Shown piece after piece: positions 20,274-57,248 of a DNA stretch of 64,000 nucleotides. How positions within the stretch are numbered: position 1 is the stretch's first letter; each line of letters starts with the position of its first letter. A program made the translations under genes and the position numbers. The notes under the pieces are model-generated. The model worked only from the letters and a program-made list of their open reading frames with translations, was not told the origin of the DNA and did not search any database. Location of the stretch: the sequence record OZ335961.1; one strand, given 5' to 3'. The DNA comes from a phage.

Positions 20274-21260
20274 TTATTTCAGAAGAGTAACCTCAGCGAT
20301 TTCTTCCCAACCGTTTTTGTCGGTCATAATAAAGTCAGCAAGATAAAGAGCAGTACGCAGTGAAACATTGCGTAAACGATTAACATTAACTTTCATCCAT
20401 GATAATGCTTTATAAGTTTCTTCATCAGAAAGACCGCGCTTTTGCATCATGTCAGTTGAAAGAATAACATCTTCAACCCTGACCATAATTTCTTCATTAG
20501 TGTGAACACCCAAATCCAAATAAACCGAGCGGGACACTAATGCTTGTAAATGTGGAGCAAGTTTAGTACCACGGTCTAATTCGCGGTCAATGTCAACGTT
20601 TGTGATAAAAACAATCGTTCCTTTAAATTCAAACTCACGCTCAATGCCTTTTTCTTCTAAGTAAGAAGACGCAGTACTCCAGCAGACTTTACGGGTCTCT
20701 CCAGTGTCCAGAGCGGCTTTTAGAAGATTAAGAATATCCATATCAGAGAAAACATCCACATCATCAATCAAAAGGACAGAATTCTCTTCACGATTATTCC
20801 AAAGCTGCTCATAAAGACCAATACCAGAGATTTTACCATTAATGCTTTTATATTCAATGTATCCAATATCATTTGCTTTATTCAAAGCTTTATCTAAAGA
20901 ATACGTTTTACCAATACCTGCAGCGCCAGAGATAATCAATGAACGAATATTTCCATTAATAATACCATTCGTCATCATTCCCATAACATTAAATCTTTTA
21001 TTAATGCGGGTTTTCATATCTTCATACGATTCTTTAACTTCTTCAACTTTTACACCATCATATGAAATATCTGATTTGTAAACCCAAACACCGCGACGTT
21101 TACCGTCAATTTCAACAAAAACTTTACCATCTCCTTGTGCATCTACCGGAGCATTATCTGGGAACCATTCGCCTAAGAGCTCAAAAGTTCCAGAGATTTC
21201 TTTACCGAAGTAGATACCCTTATTGATAGTTACAGTTTTCATTTTATTCTCCAATTTCAC
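20274..21260 (-). CDS. P-loop NTPase (AAA-like ATPase)
   Basis: 328 aa; Walker A GAAGIGKT and Walker B LLIDDVD. Confidence 0.6.
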   Translation of the reverse strand: MKLENKMKTVTINKGIYFGKEISGTFELLGEWFPDNAPVDAQGDGKVFVEIDGKRRGVWVYKSDISYDGVKVEEVKESYEDMKTRINKRFNVMGMMTNGIINGNIRSLIISGAAGIGKTYSLDKALNKANDIGYIEYKSINGKISGIGLYEQLWNNREENSVLLIDDVDVFSDMDILNLLKAALDTGETRKVCWSTASSYLEEKGIEREFEFKGTIVFITNVDIDRELDRGTKLAPHLQALVSRSVYLDLGVHTNEEIMVRVEDVILSTDMMQKRGLSDEETYKALSWMKVNVNRLRNVSLRTALYLADFIMTDKNGWEEIAEVTLLK

Positions 21261-21311
21261 ATTTGTTTTGATAGGGTAATAATATCACACTACTACCCTA
21301 CTGTAAACAAT

Positions 21312-21575
21312 TTATTTTAATGTTTGCCAAATTTTTACTGCTTCGCGACGAGATACTTCTACAGCTCCAAGTTCTACGGCTTTTTGGCGTCGGCGAGCAT
21401 GTAAGTCATAATGTTTAATGCGTTTATCTTGAAACCAAGAACGTTTCATTCCTATTGCTTCTGCCATTTTATGAAGCTCTTCAATATCTCCATCAGTGAA
21501 CATATGACAATTTTTAGTTGGATGACCGCGAAGTTTCCATCCATGATTCATTAAAACATCTACGTAAACTGTCAT
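21312..21575 (-). CDS. hypothetical conserved small protein
   Basis: 87-aa ORF; basic. Confidence 0.5.
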   Translation of the reverse strand: MTVYVDVLMNHGWKLRGHPTKNCHMFTDGDIEELHKMAEAIGMKRSWFQDKRIKHYDLHARRRQKAVELGAVEVSRREAVKIWQTLK

Positions 21576-21721
21576 TGATTCTGCTCCAAATATGTTTCTA
21601 TAATTTTCTGAGCGAGATAAACTGCGTTATCTTCAGTTGCATCTTCTAAGAAATTTTCAAAATAAGCTGAAATTTCTTCTGTGTCAATCAACTTTTTTAC
21701 TTCAATTAACGTAGTTTTCAT
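21572..21721 (-). CDS. hypothetical small acidic protein (49 aa)
   Basis: Hand-translated MKTTLIEVKKLIDTEEISAYFENFLEDATEDNAVY...; stop overlaps next start. Confidence 0.3.
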   Translation of the reverse strand: MKTTLIEVKKLIDTEEISAYFENFLEDATEDNAVYLAQKIIETYLEQNQ

Positions 21722-21744
21722 TTTATTCCCCAAATCCGTATCAG

Positions 21745-21786
21745 TTGATAGTTGTATAGTACCATAAAGCTTTATGCTTGTAAACC
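21745..21786 (-). promoter_or_regulatory. early promoter with conserved downstream element
   Basis: Same conserved element as 19826-19868. Confidence 0.5.
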
Positions 21787-21815
21787 GTTTTGTGAAAAAA
21801 TTTTGAAATAAAAAA

Positions 21816-21833
21816 GGGAGCCCGAAGGCTCCC
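21816..21833 (-). terminator. rho-independent terminator after NTase-like gene
   Basis: GGGAGCC-UUCG-GGCUCCC followed by UUUUUAUUU. Confidence 0.7.
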
Positions 21834-21835
21834 TA

Positions 21836-22849
21836 TCATTTATAATAACTTCGATGGTTTTCAAGATAAATCCTCTCAAGGAAGTCATCCCAGAAACCCA
21901 TGTCTACTTTTTGCTGCATACCGTTCTTAGAAGCTTCAATGGATGCTGCTTCTACTTGATCGACCACATCTTCCAAAAACTCTTGAACAGTTTTAAATGG
22001 ATGTTTACCCAACTTCACGTCGAGAATAAATGGAGCGTCTTGAAGTGGATAGACTAAGTCACCAGTTTTGTAAATTTCCAATAGTTGGAGTCCACCACGG
22101 CAAGCATGACTCAGAGCTTTCCAGTCAATGCCCTCATTCGCTTCAGCCTTACGAGCACGTTCGCCGTATTCAGCATCAAGTTTATTCAAAGATTGCTTAA
22201 GCTCGATAAGAGAAAGCGTTGTTTGATATTTACGACCCAACACAGTGTAGAACGTTTGTGGGCCTGTTTTCTCATGATTATGGAATACCCATTCACAGAA
22301 TTCGTTCTCTGGAAGACGATGCTTAATATCTTCTACCTTAGTTCGACGTTGCTTAATGGAACCGTCTTCTTGATAATCAACCCATTGGTCAGGGATTTGA
22401 CTAACTACTTTCAATACATCACGTAATGCGGCCAAACGAGAACCCTTGACGCCGTATTTAGAAGCTTGCTTGCGAACATATCCTAAATAGGATTTCATGT
22501 TAGTCGTATAAAAACGAGAACGATTGTCTTGAATAAACTTCCATACATCAGGCAAATCAGATTTAACCACTAACTCAGGTGGAGTGTGGAGCATATCCAA
22601 TGCTACAGTTTCACCATCTGCTGCTAATTTAAAGAAATATTTAAGACTGTATAGTTCATGGTCAATATCATCTTTAGTGTTTTTAGATGATGTGTTGTTA
22701 GTGTTTTTACTCATATGCTCTTTAACATTTCCGATAAGAATATCGCGAGCACGAGGAACAAAAATTTCTTTAAAATCTACATCAGATTCTGGAGTAGAAG
22801 TTCCATAAAGATGACTACCAAAATAGCTTTTCATTACTGTTTTCATCAT
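21836..22849 (-). CDS. minimal nucleotidyltransferase (Pol-beta superfamily) fold protein
   Basis: 337 aa; N-terminal GS-x9-SDVDF motif (FGSHLYGTSTPESDVDF) typical of Pol-beta-type NTases; followed by strong terminator. Confidence 0.55.
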   Translation of the reverse strand: MMKTVMKSYFGSHLYGTSTPESDVDFKEIFVPRARDILIGNVKEHMSKNTNNTSSKNTKDDIDHELYSLKYFFKLAADGETVALDMLHTPPELVVKSDLPDVWKFIQDNRSRFYTTNMKSYLGYVRKQASKYGVKGSRLAALRDVLKVVSQIPDQWVDYQEDGSIKQRRTKVEDIKHRLPENEFCEWVFHNHEKTGPQTFYTVLGRKYQTTLSLIELKQSLNKLDAEYGERARKAEANEGIDWKALSHACRGGLQLLEIYKTGDLVYPLQDAPFILDVKLGKHPFKTVQEFLEDVVDQVEAASIEASKNGMQQKVDMGFWDDFLERIYLENHRSYYK

Positions 22850-23307
22850 TCAGCCTTATATTCAATAACAGGACATACTTTAGCTTTACGTGCTTTTAAA
22901 AATTCGACGATAATAGATTTCTTGGGTTGAATAGGAGGTAAACCTTTATACGCCCTATCAATATTTTCTACATGTAAAGCATAATCCTTTTTCCATTTAT
23001 AATCTTTATATTTTTCATGCAGTTGTGCAGGAATAACAAATGAACCAATAATAAGTAAAACAAGCAAAATGGCAAGTGTAAATGCTGATGGAATAAGAGT
23101 CCATAAACTACCAAAAATAAGCCATTTCTGTATGATTTCTGCGCAGATAATAGTTAGACCTGTGAGTACAGTACATCCGAAAAAAGAAACGAAAAATGTA
23201 GGGATAACAATAGACCAAAAGTATGCACATAATGTCTTAGGTCGTTTCCATTCGTCGTTAAACATTTTGAATAATTTATAATGCCAAGAGTTTTCATTAA
23301 TAATCAT
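22846..23307 (-). CDS. membrane protein
   Basis: 153 aa; 3 predicted TM segments. Confidence 0.5.
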   Translation of the reverse strand: MIINENSWHYKLFKMFNDEWKRPKTLCAYFWSIVIPTFFVSFFGCTVLTGLTIICAEIIQKWLIFGSLWTLIPSAFTLAILLVLLIIGSFVIPAQLHEKYKDYKWKKDYALHVENIDRAYKGLPPIQPKKSIIVEFLKARKAKVCPVIEYKAE

Positions 23308-23309
23308 AA

Positions 23310-23831
23310 TTATCCTTTCATTGAAGGTGTAACAGTTGTTAAATACTTAATCATAGCTTCAGCTTCTGATTTTGATAATGAAATTTCTCCATTGTTTTGA
23401 CGAATAGAAATAAAATCCGGATGATGGTCACCACCAGCTTTTAAAATACACATATAAGTATCAGTTTCATCTTCAATATCTGAAATGATTGAAGCAGTTC
23501 CACATGAATGTGGTTTTTGATAAATCAATACAGCTTTTCTTCCACCGTTTGACTGTTCATAAACTTTTAACACATCAAACAAATCACTTCTTTTATCAAT
23601 AGCTAAGATGTTGTTTTCATCTTCAATGTTAAATCCTTCGGATACTTCATAAAGTGTCACCCATAAATCGCCAATATCAATAACAGCGTTCACTTTTCCA
23701 TGACTTTCAAGAGCATTACAAATTTTCTTGATTTCATCATAACTCATTTTAATAATATCATCTCCTTGAATAAGAAAGATGTCATTTTTAAATTCAACAC
23801 GAATTAAACCGCTTTCACTTGAAATAAACAT
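23310..23831 (-). CDS. hypothetical protein (paralog pair member)
   Basis: 173 aa; shares GFNIE-D/S-E and C-terminal KxYLxxVxPxM motifs with adjacent ORF. Confidence 0.5.
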   Translation of the reverse strand: MFISSESGLIRVEFKNDIFLIQGDDIIKMSYDEIKKICNALESHGKVNAVIDIGDLWVTLYEVSEGFNIEDENNILAIDKRSDLFDVLKVYEQSNGGRKAVLIYQKPHSCGTASIISDIEDETDTYMCILKAGGDHHPDFISIRQNNGEISLSKSEAEAMIKYLTTVTPSMKG

Positions 23832-23837
23832 ATTTCC

Positions 23838-24392
23838 TCACTTTGAAATCATAGTTGGAATGACAGAATCAAGATAAGTCTTTAGTAAAACAGCTTCTTC
23901 TTTGTTTAATACAACAACATTAACATCATTTACCGATTGACGAATAGTTAAGACATCTCCTTCTTCGTAACACTTTGATACATTTAAAACAGTTTCATAA
24001 TTTTGATTACAAGCGTTAGTAATAATAGCATTGCAATTTTTAAACCATTTTAAACTATGTTTTCTTTCATTAGAATAATAAAAATATTTAATCTTAGCTA
24101 TAAAATTATCCCAATTATTAATTGATAAGCATATTGACTCGCTTTCAATATTAAATCCTGGGCATAAAGAATAAAAATGAATTTTATGCTCATCATTGAT
24201 GCTTACAATTTTATCAGTATAAGGTTTTTCAATTTGGGTTAAATGAATGATTTCGCTAGGAGTAAAATATAGCATATCGTCTTCTTGTGTGAAACGATAC
24301 ATATTATTTACTTTTTCTATAGCCAATTCACCAAAAAGTGAACTAACTTCTAATACTAATCGTTTCATATTGATTCTCTTCGACTCACTCAC
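23838..24392 (-). CDS. hypothetical protein (paralog pair member)
   Basis: 184 aa; see above; track start is GTG-like, true ATG may be a few codons in. Confidence 0.5.
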   Translation of the reverse strand: MSESKRINMKRLVLEVSSLFGELAIEKVNNMYRFTQEDDMLYFTPSEIIHLTQIEKPYTDKIVSINDEHKIHFYSLCPGFNIESESICLSINNWDNFIAKIKYFYYSNERKHSLKWFKNCNAIITNACNQNYETVLNVSKCYEEGDVLTIRQSVNDVNVVVLNKEEAVLLKTYLDSVIPTMISK

Positions 24393-38234: not shown

Positions 38235-38310
38235 TTCTTGTTTGGTCGAGGCAGTAGGGATCGAACCTACGACCTAGGACTTAGAAGGTCCTTGCTCTTC
38301 CTTCTGAGCT
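38235..38310 (-). tRNA. tRNA-Arg (anticodon UCU)
   Basis: Hand-folded cloverleaf, perfect 7-bp acceptor stem, GGTTCGATCC T-arm, encoded CCA; coordinates approximate. Confidence 0.7.
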
Positions 38311-38314
38311 ATGC

Positions 38315-38389
38315 CTCGTATTTGGCGGACATGCATGGATTCGAACCATGGACCAATTGATTAACAGTCAACTGCTCTACCACTGAGCT
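38315..38389 (-). tRNA. tRNA-Asn (anticodon GUU)
   Basis: Hand-folded; anticodon loop CUGUUAA; GGTTCGAATCC T-arm; encoded CCA; coordinates approximate. Confidence 0.6.
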
Positions 38390-38394
38390 ACACA

Positions 38395-38480
38395 TCCAAA
38401 TTGGTGGGGAGTGGTGGAGTCGAACCACCCGAGTCGCAATGACAATGGATTTACAGTCCACACCGCTACCTCTACGGGAT
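38395..38480 (-). tRNA. tRNA-Tyr (anticodon GUA), type II with long variable arm
   Basis: Hand-folded; anticodon loop CUGUAAA; long variable arm like bacterial tRNA-Tyr; encoded CCA; coordinates approximate. Confidence 0.55.
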
Positions 38481-38489
38481 AACTCCCCA

Positions 38490-38564
38490 AATTAATTTGG
38501 TGGCCCTGGGTGGAATTGAACCACCGTCTGGCGATTATGAGTCGCTTGCTTGAACCTTCCAGCT
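38490..38564 (-). tRNA. tRNA with CAU anticodon (Ile2 or Met type)
   Basis: Hand-folded; anticodon loop CUCAUAA; encoded CCA; coordinates approximate. Confidence 0.6.
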
Positions 38565-38565
38565 A

Positions 38566-38641
38566 CAGGGCCTTGGTGCTGATTGACGGAATCGAACCGC
38601 CGACCTTCTCATTACAAGTGAGTTGCTCTACCTACTGAGCT
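38566..38641 (-). tRNA. tRNA-Thr (anticodon UGU)
   Basis: Hand-folded; anticodon loop CUUGUAA; 1 nt from neighbouring tRNA; coordinates approximate. Confidence 0.65.
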
Positions 38642-38646
38642 AAATC

Positions 38647-38736
38647 AGCAAAACTGGCGGAGGCGATAGGATTTGAACCTATGAGTCGCCGGAGCGACTG
38701 CCGGTTTTCAAGACCGGTGCATTAAACCACTCTGCC
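38647..38736 (-). tRNA. tRNA-Ser (anticodon UGA), type II
   Basis: Hand-folded; long variable arm; sequence GGAGGCGTGGCAGAGTGG... matches T4 tRNA-Ser as recalled; coordinates approximate. Confidence 0.7.
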
Positions 38737-38750
38737 ACGCCTCCAAATAT

Positions 38751-39401
38751 TTATATATTGTTAATTTGATTTAGAATTCTTTTTGCTTGAGTATGACTTA
38801 CGCCAATATGCTTAGCATATTTAGATAATTCACCGCGCTTAGAAAAATCATATAATTTAGAAATTTCTATTCTTCTTTTTCTTTCATCCGCAGAAACTTT
38901 TGCTTCGTTCGCTTTTGCTATTTTACGTTTAGCTTCTTGAGAATGAGTTTTACCAGCAAAGCCATTCTTCATTAATCCATTTGAAGACCATCCTTTTAAT
39001 TTTCCGTTAGAATGTGCCTTTTTAACACCCAATGAAATTAATTCGCGTTGCTGATCTGTCATAGGATAATTATTTATATGATCCCATCCACCTTCACCGC
39101 CAAGTTTTAAATTATACACATCTGGTCTATTTAAAAACTCTTCTGTAACAATATTTTTCTCGGCTTCAAGCATAGATTCTTTATCATCAAAATACTCTAA
39201 TATTTCTTTAGAGAAATTTTCTATACCATACTTATCTTGGGCTCGTTTTAATAATTTACCAGAACCCATATATCCATCATCTAAATTTTCGGTAGAATGC
39301 ACACCAATATAAATTTTATTATTAATTTTATTTGTTATTTTATAAAGATAAAAATGCATATCAGTCCCTAATAAAGAACTGAGCGTCTCACGACGAGTCA
39401 T
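38751..39401 (-). mobile_element. segB: GIY-YIG homing endonuclease (SegB-like) embedded in tRNA cluster
   Basis: 216-aa ORF; N-terminal GIY-YIG motif FYLYKITNKINNKIYIGVHS...GYMGSG; located between tRNA-Gly and tRNA-Ser. Confidence 0.75.
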
Positions 39402-39405
39402 AAAT

Positions 39406-39479
<74 letters not shown>

Positions 39480-39484
39480 AAATT

Positions 39485-39571
39485 TGGTGCGAGAAGTGGG
39501 ACTCGAACCCACAAGGAAATCATTCCGCAGCATTTTAAGTGCTGTGCCTTTACCAATTTGACCATTCTCGC
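39485..39571 (-). tRNA. tRNA-Leu (anticodon UAA), type II
   Basis: Sequence GCGAGAATGGTCAAATTGGTAAAGGCACAGCACTTAAAATGCTG... matches T4 tRNA-Leu as recalled. Confidence 0.8.
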
Positions 39572-39572
39572 G

Positions 39573-39645
39573 CTGGGAATAAAGGACTCGAACCTTTGCA
39601 TCCTGGAATCAAAATCCAGTGCCTTACCAACTTGGCTAATTCCCA
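39573..39645 (-). tRNA. tRNA-Gln (anticodon UUG); 3' CCA apparently not encoded
   Basis: Starts TGGGAATTAGCCAAGTTGGTAAGGCA...; anticodon loop UUUUGAU; abuts tRNA-Leu (dimeric precursor arrangement). Confidence 0.7.
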
Positions 39646-54576: not shown

Positions 54577-55443
54577 ATGTTCATTCAAGAACCAAAGAAA
54601 TTGATTGATACCGGCGAAATTGGTAACGCTTCTACTGGTGATATCTTATTCGACGGTGGTAATAAAATTAATAGTGATTTTAACGCAATTTATAATGCGT
54701 TTGGCGATCAGCGCAAAATGGCAGTAGCAAATGGCACTGGAGCAAATGGACAAATTATCCATGCTACTGGATATTATCAAAAACACTCTATTGCAGAGTA
54801 CGCAACTCCAGTGAAAGTTGGCACTAGGCATGATATTGATACCTCTACTGTAGGTGTTAAAGTTATCATTGAAAGAGGCGAACTTGGCGACTGCGTTGAA
54901 TTTATTAACTCAAATGGATCTATATCAGTTACTAATCCTTTAACGATTCAAGCGATTGATTCAATTAAAGGTGTTTCAGGTAATTTGGTAGTAACTAGCC
55001 CATATAGTAAAGTTACTTTACGTTGTATTTCATCTGATAATTCTACATCGGTTTGGAATTATTCTATTGAAAGCATGTTTGGACAAAAGGAATCACCAGC
55101 TGAAGGTACATGGAATATTTCTACATCCGGATCAGTTGATATTCCACTATTTCATCGTACTGAATACAATATGGCTAAATTGCTAGTTACGTGCCAATCG
55201 GTAGATGGAAGAAAAATTAAAACAGCAGAAATAAATATTCTTGTGGATACTGTTAATTCAGAAGTCATTTCTTCTGAATATGCTGTCATGCGGGTCGGCA
55301 ATGAAACCGAAGAAGACGAAATCGCTAATATTGCATTTAGTATTAAAGAAAATTATGTAACGGCGACTATAAGTTCTCCAACTGTCGGTATGAGAGCAGC
55401 AGTTAAAGTTATCGCTACGCAGAAAATCGGGGTGGCTCAATAA
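54577..55443 (+). CDS. 9: gp9 baseplate wedge / long tail fiber socket
   Basis: 288 aa; late promoter TATAAATA upstream. Confidence 0.9.
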   Translation: MFIQEPKKLIDTGEIGNASTGDILFDGGNKINSDFNAIYNAFGDQRKMAVANGTGANGQIIHATGYYQKHSIAEYATPVKVGTRHDIDTSTVGVKVIIERGELGDCVEFINSNGSISVTNPLTIQAIDSIKGVSGNLVVTSPYSKVTLRCISSDNSTSVWNYSIESMFGQKESPAEGTWNISTSGSVDIPLFHRTEYNMAKLLVTCQSVDGRKIKTAEINILVDTVNSEVISSEYAVMRVGNETEEDEIANIAFSIKENYVTATISSPTVGMRAAVKVIATQKIGVAQ

Positions 55444-57248
55444 TGAAACAAAATATTAATATCGGTAATGTTGTAGATGATGGTACCGGTGACTACCTGC
55501 GTAAAGGTGGTATAAAAATAAATGAAAACTTTGATGAACTTTATTATGAACTCGGTGATGGTGATGTTCCATATTCAGCCGGTGCCTGGAAAACTTATAA
55601 TGCTTCATCTGGGCAAACACTAACGGCAGAATGGGGAAAATCATACGCTATTAATACTTCGTCTGGGAGAGTAACACTACAACTTCCTAAAGGAACTGTT
55701 AATGATTATAATAAAGTAATTAGAGCTAGGGATGTATTCGCAACATGGAACATTAATCCAGTTACTTTAGTAGCTGCTTCTGGAGATACAATTAAAGGGT
55801 CGTCATCATCGGTTGAAATTAATATTCAATTTAGTGATTTGGAGTTAGTTTATTGTGCTCCAGGACGTTGGGAATATGTCAAAAATAAGCAAATTGACAA
55901 AATTATTAGTTCAGATATTAGTAATGTAGCTCGCAAAGAATTTTTAGTAGAAGTTCAAGGACAAACTGACTTCTTAGATATTTTCCGTGGAACTAGTTAT
56001 AATGTTAATAACATAAGAGTAAAACATCGCGGTAACGAATTATATTACGGCGATGTATTTAGTGAAAACAGTGACTTTGGCTCTCCAGGGGAAAATGAAG
56101 GAGAATTAATTCCTCTTGATGGATTTAATATTAGGTTAAGACAGCCTTGTAATATTGGTGACACTGTTCAAATTGAAACATTTATGGATGGTGTATCACA
56201 ATGGAGAAGTTCATATACAAGACGCCAAATAAAAGTACTAGATTCAAAACTAACATCAAAGACTTCTTTAGAAGGAAGCATTTATGTTACTGATTTATCG
56301 GCGATGAAATCAATTCCATTTTCTGCATTTGGATTAATTCCTGGTGAACCTATTAATCCTAATTCTCTTGAGGTTCGTTTTAATGGAATTTTACAGCAGC
56401 AGGCTGGAACAGCTGGATATCCTCTGTTTTTGTGCGAAGGCGCTAATTCAGATACGCAAGAAGGATGTATATCTCTTGGTGGCGAATGGAAAGAATCAAA
56501 CACCGATTATTCTATAGAATATGAAGACGGAAAACCTGTCAGTCTTTTATTTGATAGAAAATTTGAATCCGGCGACATTATCGTTATAACATGGTTCAAT
56601 AACGATTTAGGAACTCTTTTAGAAAAAGATGACATCATTGAATTGACTGATGACCGCTATGTTAGCAAAGGATCATCTACCGAGGTTACTGGTGATGTAG
56701 CCTTAACGGATTTTGATAAAATTGGTTGGCCAAATGTTGAAAAAGTTGATTCTTATACTAGAACGTATAATTCAATATCATCTATTTTCGACAGCATTTA
56801 TCCAGTTGGTTCAATTTATGAAAATGCTATAAACCCAAATAATCCAGTGACTTATATGGGATTTGGTTCGTGGAAATTATTTGGTAAAGGACAAGTTTTA
56901 GTAGGATGGAATGATGATGTTACAGATCCAAACTTTGCATTAAACAATAATGATTTAGATTCTAGCGGAAATCCTTCACATACTGCAGGTGGAACAGTTG
57001 GAACAACATCAGTAACGCTTGAAAACGCAAATCTTCCTGCGACTAAAACTGATGAAAGAGTTTTAATTGAAGACGAAAATGGATCAGTTATTATTGGAGG
57101 TTGTCAATATGACCCAGATGAAACTGGTCCTATATATACAAAATATCGTGAAGACTACGCAACAACAAACTCTTCACATACTCCTCCTGCTAATATTAGT
57201 AATATTCAACCATCTATTACTGTATACCGTTGGATAAGGATTGCATAA
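55443..57248 (+). CDS. 10: gp10 baseplate wedge / short-fiber attachment
   Basis: 601 aa. Confidence 0.9.

Follow-up and report, generated by a model that had tools for sequence, protein, structure and literature searches.

RNA repair as a counter-defence was first discovered in phage T4, whose Pnkp enzyme makes 3′-OH and 5′-phosphate ends that are sealed by the RNA ligase Rnl1. A family of nucleotidyltransferases (NTases) associated with RNA repair was named RlaP by Burroughs and Aravind in 2016, as cited in PMC12776372 and PMC7824862. Two members, from Pseudomonas fluorescens and P. aeruginosa, have been characterised biochemically (PMC12776372). They add one or two NMPs to the 3′-OH of RNA, accept any NTP and also dATP, prefer Mn2+, and use neither DNA nor E. 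coli proteins as substrates. On a nicked tRNA mimic, the break in the anticodon loop was favoured over the 3′ acceptor end, and a tRNA with one nucleotide missing from its anticodon loop regained part of its aminoacylation. RlaP has been proposed to counter RloC and similar "smart" ribotoxins, whose cut is followed by removal of a nucleotide, and the 3′-OH end of the RlaP product suits 5′-phosphate ligases such as those of T4 (PMC12776372). The same repair role has been predicted for the RlaPs of phages (PMC7824862). In a sequence similarity network published in a 2025 preprint, the characterised Pseudomonas enzymes belong to cluster 1a, unlike T4 NrdC.11, a member of the same Pfam family (PF10127), which falls into cluster 5 (PMC12776372).

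The window analysed here, a stretch of 64,000 nucleotides of a phage genome (sequence record OZ335961.1), encodes a close relative of this T4 protein. As in the Pseudomonas RlaPs, an NTase domain at the N-terminus of the relative is followed by a helical part at the C-terminus. The GS and DxD motifs are common to both, as is a third acidic residue; the motif K-x3-[HY]-x2-R in the helical part appears to be shared as well. Relatives of both types are found in RtcB operons. By contrast, NrdC.11 contains a beta insert of about 60 residues and a conserved K56-N57 loop, which the Pseudomonas RlaPs lack, and it occurs in phages without an operon link to a ligase.

The nrdC.11 orthologue and its surroundings

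The gene occupies positions 21836..22849 on the minus strand of the window (stop codon 21836-21838) and encodes 337 amino acids if translated from the first ATG; the ORF product begins with MMKTVMKSYFGSHLYGTSTPESDVDF. The genome is that of a T4-like phage (Tequatrovirus), and the gene is its orthologue of T4 nrdC.11: 326 of 336 residues (97%) are identical to T4 NrdC.11 (NP_049709; T4-like gene cluster GC1542), the remaining ten being substitutions, and window positions 21713-22850 correspond to T4 positions 55312-56449, which comprise nrdC.11 and its terminator, with 93.8% nucleotide identity. In RefSeq (NC_000866), the T4 protein already carries the label "nucleotidyltransferase". Since the ORF is a near-identical orthologue of an annotated T4 gene in a named family, its recognition as an NTase gene is correct but ordinary; gene, fold assignment and family are already contained in RefSeq, Pfam, PHROGs and the literature, and the annotation adds nothing new. 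Across the 15 kb surrounding the gene, identity to many Tequatrovirus phages of Escherichia and Shigella is about 96-97%. The gene itself was matched at the DNA level in 669 and at the protein level in 1514 phage records, spanning phages of Escherichia, Klebsiella, Aeromonas, Acinetobacter and Vibrio, and a large metagenomic library yielded 3237 matching cluster representatives (clustering at 50% identity).

At the 5′ end of the ORF there are two adjacent in-frame ATG codons (ATAAGGCTGAATGATG). An AAGG element resembling a Shine-Dalgarno sequence is situated 5′ of both, and they overlap the TGA with which the upstream gene ends. Counted from the second ATG, the protein has 336 amino acids, the length of T4 NrdC.11 and of nearly all homologues. 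Because T4 and nearly all homologues begin at this codon, the true start is probably the second ATG at position 22846. One base past the stop codon, the gene is followed by an intrinsic terminator (21809..21834, minus strand) composed of an 8-bp GC-rich stem, a UUCG loop and a U6 tail. The hairpin, AGGGAGCC-UUCG-GGCUCCCU, extends from 21834 to 21815 on the minus strand, directly before the U6 tract, and is conserved with T4. An earlier note on this DNA had credited the ORF with a strong terminator of its own, which is borne out by the position of the hairpin and by its folding energy of -17.7 kcal/mol (z = -3.85 compared to shuffled sequence). The description of the sequence in that note was correct, apart from the strand (minus), which had been left unstated.

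In T4, the HNH homing endonuclease gene mobD is located between nrdC.11 and mobD.1. DNA of mobD was absent from the region of the window that was compared, and its place is taken by the adjoining segment 22851-23812, so that the T4 mobD slot contains a gene for a predicted membrane protein of 153 amino acids (22846..23307, minus strand; phrog_944) and a second, extra copy of a MobD.1/y05I-like gene (23310..23831, minus strand). Two y05I-like genes are thus arranged in tandem (23310..23831 and 23838..24392). The NTase gene had been thought to sit where T4 carries mobD, but the alignment with T4 revealed that it is T4's own nrdC.11, adjoining the empty mobD slot. Homing-endonuclease motifs had not been evident, in agreement with the Pfam and PHROG analyses, which detected no HNH or GIY-YIG endonuclease domain.

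On the other side of the gene, the organisation is like that of T4, where nrdC.11 has the same length and the same terminator and is likewise situated upstream of nrdC.10. However, the two genes are parted in the window by a 458-bp insertion (21255-21712) comprising two ORFs. One of them encodes 53 amino acids (21572..21733, minus strand; phrog_6888), the other a DUF4031 protein of 87 amino acids (21312..21575, minus strand; Pfam E 1.6e-21). The 575-bp segment holding the insertion (21261-21835) was covered to at least 80% in 155 phage records. The NrdC.10 orthologue (20274-21260, minus strand) is a P-loop protein of 328 amino acids with the motif GAAGIGKT, for which AAA/STAND hits were obtained below threshold only. 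NrdC.10 stays near nrdC.11 in T4-like phages of Escherichia and Acinetobacter, but not in Vibrio and Caulobacter phages.

Within the window, the Pfam and PHROG scans covered the genes from 20274 to 24392. Neither NrdC.10 nor the DUF4031 protein, the 53-aa ORF product, the membrane protein of 153 amino acids or the MobD.1-like protein recurs beside the cellular relatives, and therefore no functional coupling is assumed. In the gene flanks of T4, ECO4, Cr30, phi-Grn1, V07 and Apostate, there is no annotated RNA ligase or Pnkp, and a conserved RNA-ligase neighbour, sought in the Vibrio phages phi-Grn1 and V07, the Acinetobacter phage Apostate and the Caulobacter phage Cr30, was not found. In Cr30 (locus L003, 5997-6797), the gene directly downstream of the NrdC.11 homologue belongs to the Pfam family Acb3, a CBASS inhibitor (E 1.8e-68); this adjacency is a single case and absent from the other phages examined. 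T4 stays viable after loss of the nrdC.11-mobD.3 region, which fits an accessory role of the gene.

Active site and domain layout

PF10127 (RlaP, "RNA repair pathway DNA polymerase beta family") was the sole Pfam family matched by the protein, with 42.1 bits compared to a gathering cut-off of 23 (E 1.1e-10). The match is limited to residues 7-135, corresponding to positions 23-142 of the 249 profile positions. PHROG 388 ("nucleotidyltransferase") was matched over the full length (E 1.9e-135), and a precomputed PF10127 assignment exists for every homologue among the matches listed. NCBIfam gave no hits for the protein, PADLOC none at E <= 0.1, and PDB sequence searches, made with the protein alone and with profiles of both alignments, returned no match.

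The conservation of the active site was determined in an alignment of 137 homologues with identities to the query down to about 34%. The N-terminal Pol-beta-type NTase core, the part matched by the Pfam RlaP profile, comprises residues 1-113 (22511..22849, minus strand). Its hG[GS] motif is F10-G11-S12, in which the glycine is present in 137/137 and the serine in 136/137 homologues (G11-S12 at 22814..22819, minus strand). The [DE]h[DE]h motif is D23-V-D25-F; D23 and D25 (22775..22783, minus strand), two predicted metal-binding carboxylates, are both invariant (137/137). The NTase signature attributed to the start of the ORF product is hence present, albeit from residue 10 onwards and not at the very start. 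The third acidic residue, whose location had been proposed as a check, could be assigned to a candidate, D63-H-E65 (22655..22663, minus strand), since position 63 is D or E in all 137 homologues and position 65 E or D in 136 of them. A further conserved acidic residue is D85 in the motif ALDML (22595..22597, minus strand; D/E in 137/137). Loss of the catalytic triad and a non-NTase fold had been named as grounds for abandoning the assignment. Both were looked for and neither occurred; as D23, D25, D63, E65 and D85 are conserved in the alignment, a loss of the triad does not speak against it. Membership in the Pol-beta superfamily with the GS...DxD signature is thus supported by the Pfam and PHROG profiles, the conserved acidic set and the fold.

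Between the DxD motif and D63 there is a low-complexity loop rich in Asn, Ser, Thr and Lys (HMSKNTNNTSSKN, residues 45-57, window 22679-22717), which ends with K56-N57. All 137 homologues have K or R at position 56 and N at position 57. The structural model is less confident in this loop, which has no counterpart in canonical RlaP.

An AlphaFold2 model based on the homologue alignment (pLDDT 88.3, pTM 0.72) placed the GS motif between a strand (3-10) and a helix (12-15) of the alpha/beta core 1-113. DxD lies at the beginning of strand 24-31, D63 and E65 on strand 62-68. The core is followed by two helices (residues 119-151), a beta-rich insert (residues 152-212; 22214..22396, minus strand) with strands 155-159, 165-169, 185-192, 196-203 and 206-209, and a C-terminal domain which forms a helical bundle in the model (residues 213-337; 21839..22213, minus strand) and carries the invariant motif DWKALSHAxR (22097-22126, minus strand). 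The insert is absent from canonical RlaP and lies outside both the Pfam RlaP match and the hhalign matches described below. A "minimal" NTase, as the protein had been called, is not compatible with this layout of 337 amino acids, in which core, helices 119-151, beta insert and C-terminal helical bundle are combined. A core-only NTase of the MNT type was rejected for the same reason, the core being joined by a beta insert specific to the clade and by the helical domain.

The best PDB fold matches of the model were NTases, with the Hailong protein HalB as the top structural hit. The structural neighbours are of the KNTase/HalB type, none of the top fold matches being of the cGAS type. Kanamycin nucleotidyltransferase/ANT(4′) and the "nucleotidyltransferase-like protein" 3c18 have the same two-domain architecture of NTase and helical bundle. 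In a viral fold library, only other "nucleotidyltransferases" of phages and giant viruses were matched.

Cellular relatives and canonical RlaP

Cellular relatives were surveyed using one genome per prokaryotic species, which resulted in 80 bacterial and archaeal loci with relatives 29-54% identical to the phage protein. The neighbouring genes were clustered and the cluster representatives checked by Pfam. The 80 contigs may include DNA of phages or prophages that was binned with the genomes, the two top hits with 52-54% identity being the likeliest cases. In 28 of the 72 loci with enough flanking sequence, a canonical full-length RlaP (PF10127, E 1.8e-69) is encoded downstream on the same strand, usually at a distance of 3-74 nt. 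Such pairs of an NrdC.11-type and a canonical RlaP gene occur in loci of the series L006-L083, e.g. L082 (6001-7784), L047, L029 and L036. Moreover, an RtcB RNA ligase was detected in 11, Ro60/TROVE in five and a Pnkp ligase domain in three of the 80 loci, and these genes are often located upstream of the NrdC.11-type NTase. Since RtcB, Pnkp, Ro60 and canonical RlaP are found beside the cellular relatives, a role in RNA repair is supported.

The relationship between the two types was analysed by profile comparison. An hhalign of the NrdC.11 clade against the canonical neighbours gave a weak match (E 0.0047) over 105 N-terminal columns, in which D63 pairs with the canonical D82 and D85 with E104, both invariant. 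Residues 213-337 aligned colinearly with 21 canonical RlaPs over 102 columns, again weakly (E 0.0074), with the invariant residues K244, H248 and R251 opposite canonical K161, Y165 and R168. An HMM built from the 21 canonical neighbours missed the NrdC.11 orthologue and revealed no second RlaP in the window. Because this narrow HMM misses the protein, the subfamily link is based on the broader Pfam model together with the weak hhalign matches. We conclude from these comparisons that NrdC.11 is a divergent branch of RlaP, set apart by a beta insert specific to its clade. This agrees with its separate cluster in PMC12776372.

Two consequences arise for the phage protein. The beta insert of the clade and the K56-N57 loop are absent from canonical RlaP, and therefore substrate or product could differ. 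Since the protein is paired with canonical RlaP in many cellular loci but alone in the phage, a partner absent from the phage may be needed. In bacteria, the occurrence of both gene types in tandem points to a possible sharing of tasks between them.

Proposed function and alternative readings

By analogy with the Pseudomonas RlaPs, we infer that NrdC.11 would be catalytically active and play a role during infection. It is likely, to a modest degree, that the orthologue, an RlaP-family NTase, adds one or two NMPs to the 3′-OH of broken RNA and thereby serves tRNA repair as a counter-defence. Two divalent metal ions, probably Mn2+, would be held by D23, D25 and D63/E65, judging by homology to the Pseudomonas enzymes, and on the same model one or two NMPs from any NTP would be transferred to the 3′-OH end without a template. 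In the infected cell, NrdC.11 would refill nucleotides trimmed from tRNA that has been cleaved by host anticodon nucleases, for instance after excision of the wobble base by RloC. Its step would come between the formation of the 3′-OH by the phage Pnkp and the sealing of the break by a 5′-phosphate RNA ligase (T4 Rnl1 or Rnl2). Judged by the known chemistry of the T4 enzymes, an RlaP step may well slot in between the Pnkp and Rnl1 reactions. NrdC.11 would thus be an accessory and dispensable counter-defence enzyme. That an NTase might modify nucleic acids had been suggested before and is consistent with the link to RNA repair.

CCA-adding enzymes and poly(A) polymerases would be comparable to NrdC.11 in that they, too, extend an RNA 3′-OH without a template by means of an active site of the Pol-beta fold. 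They possess other accessory domains, however, and NrdC.11 did not match their profiles. RlaP, by contrast, has no NTP specificity and stops after one or two additions (PMC12776372).

A more specific proposal, which we regard as tentative and somewhat doubtful, is that proteins of the NrdC.11 type form a structurally distinct RlaP subfamily, recognisable by the beta insert and the K56-N57 loop, which in cells normally works in tandem with canonical RlaP within RtcB/Ro60/Pnkp repair operons, but in T4-like phages as the lone third enzyme of the classic T4 pathway of tRNA repair (Pnkp, NrdC.11, Rnl1). If this were true, the phage would survive "smart" anticodon nucleases like RloC, which excise a nucleotide to defeat repair. 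Restoration by NrdC.11 of nucleotides excised by RloC-like nucleases would answer the question of how, and whether, phages counter nucleotide-excising anticodon nucleases.

NrdC.11 might instead be an RNA 3′-end NTase acting outside break repair, which tails or marks host or phage RNAs (mRNA, tRNA 3′ ends or small RNAs) and alters their stability or function. The Pseudomonas enzyme labels rRNA- and tRNA-sized species as well as single-stranded RNA with any NTP and with low specificity (PMC12776372), the phage gene has no linkage to ligase genes, and the beta insert predicted for the clade could redirect the choice of substrate. Nevertheless, we consider such a function unlikely, as relatives of the same clade reside in RtcB, Ro60 and Pnkp neighbourhoods, and RlaP prefers a break in the anticodon loop over the 3′ acceptor end (PMC12776372). 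The maturation of T4 tRNAs relies on the CCA-adding enzyme of the host, which argues against a CCA-repair role.

It is still less probable that the target of nucleotidylylation is a protein or a small molecule, e.g. a host HEPN toxin that would be neutralised in this way. MNT antitoxins AMPylate HEPN RNase toxins, and KNTase/ANT/Lnu enzymes modify antibiotics. NrdC.11 resembles such enzymes solely at the level of the fold (MNT/KNTase-like), but the matches are weak and reflect the common fold, and no sequence profile of those families matched. In addition, the genomic context of the relatives is RNA repair, and the RlaP enzymes assayed did not use proteins of E. coli as substrates (PMC12776372).

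The top structural hit raises the question of whether NrdC.11 synthesises oligodeoxyadenylates or another oligonucleotide in the manner of HalB, its product being a decoy that keeps a Hailong-type effector off. HalB (PDB 9dbh and 9dbj) makes oligodeoxyadenylate in bacterial defence. With a TM-score of about 0.25, the likeness is confined to the common NTase core; NrdC.11 is 12-15% identical to HalB with a length difference of about 120 residues ("shorter"), and neither a sequence or profile match to HalB, i.e. no relationship at profile level, nor a PADLOC hit was found. Moreover, RlaP stops after one or two nucleotides and does not extend DNA (PMC12776372). A synthase of this kind is therefore very improbable. 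The production or interception of cyclic or linear nucleotide second messengers by a cGAS/DncV-like enzyme, which the earlier note had raised as interference with signalling, has the Pol-beta fold with its catalytic signature and the Acb3 gene of Cr30 in its favour, but is the least credible function, since no CD-NTase, SMODS or defence-family profile (Pfam, PADLOC) matched, the structural neighbours are of the KNTase/HalB and not of the cGAS type, and Cr30 stands alone among the phages examined.

At some distance from nrdC.11, the window contains a cluster of nine tRNA genes (38243-39645, minus strand) for Arg, Asn, Tyr, Met, Thr, Ser, Gly, Leu and Gln, a set which we take to differ from the eight tRNAs of T4.
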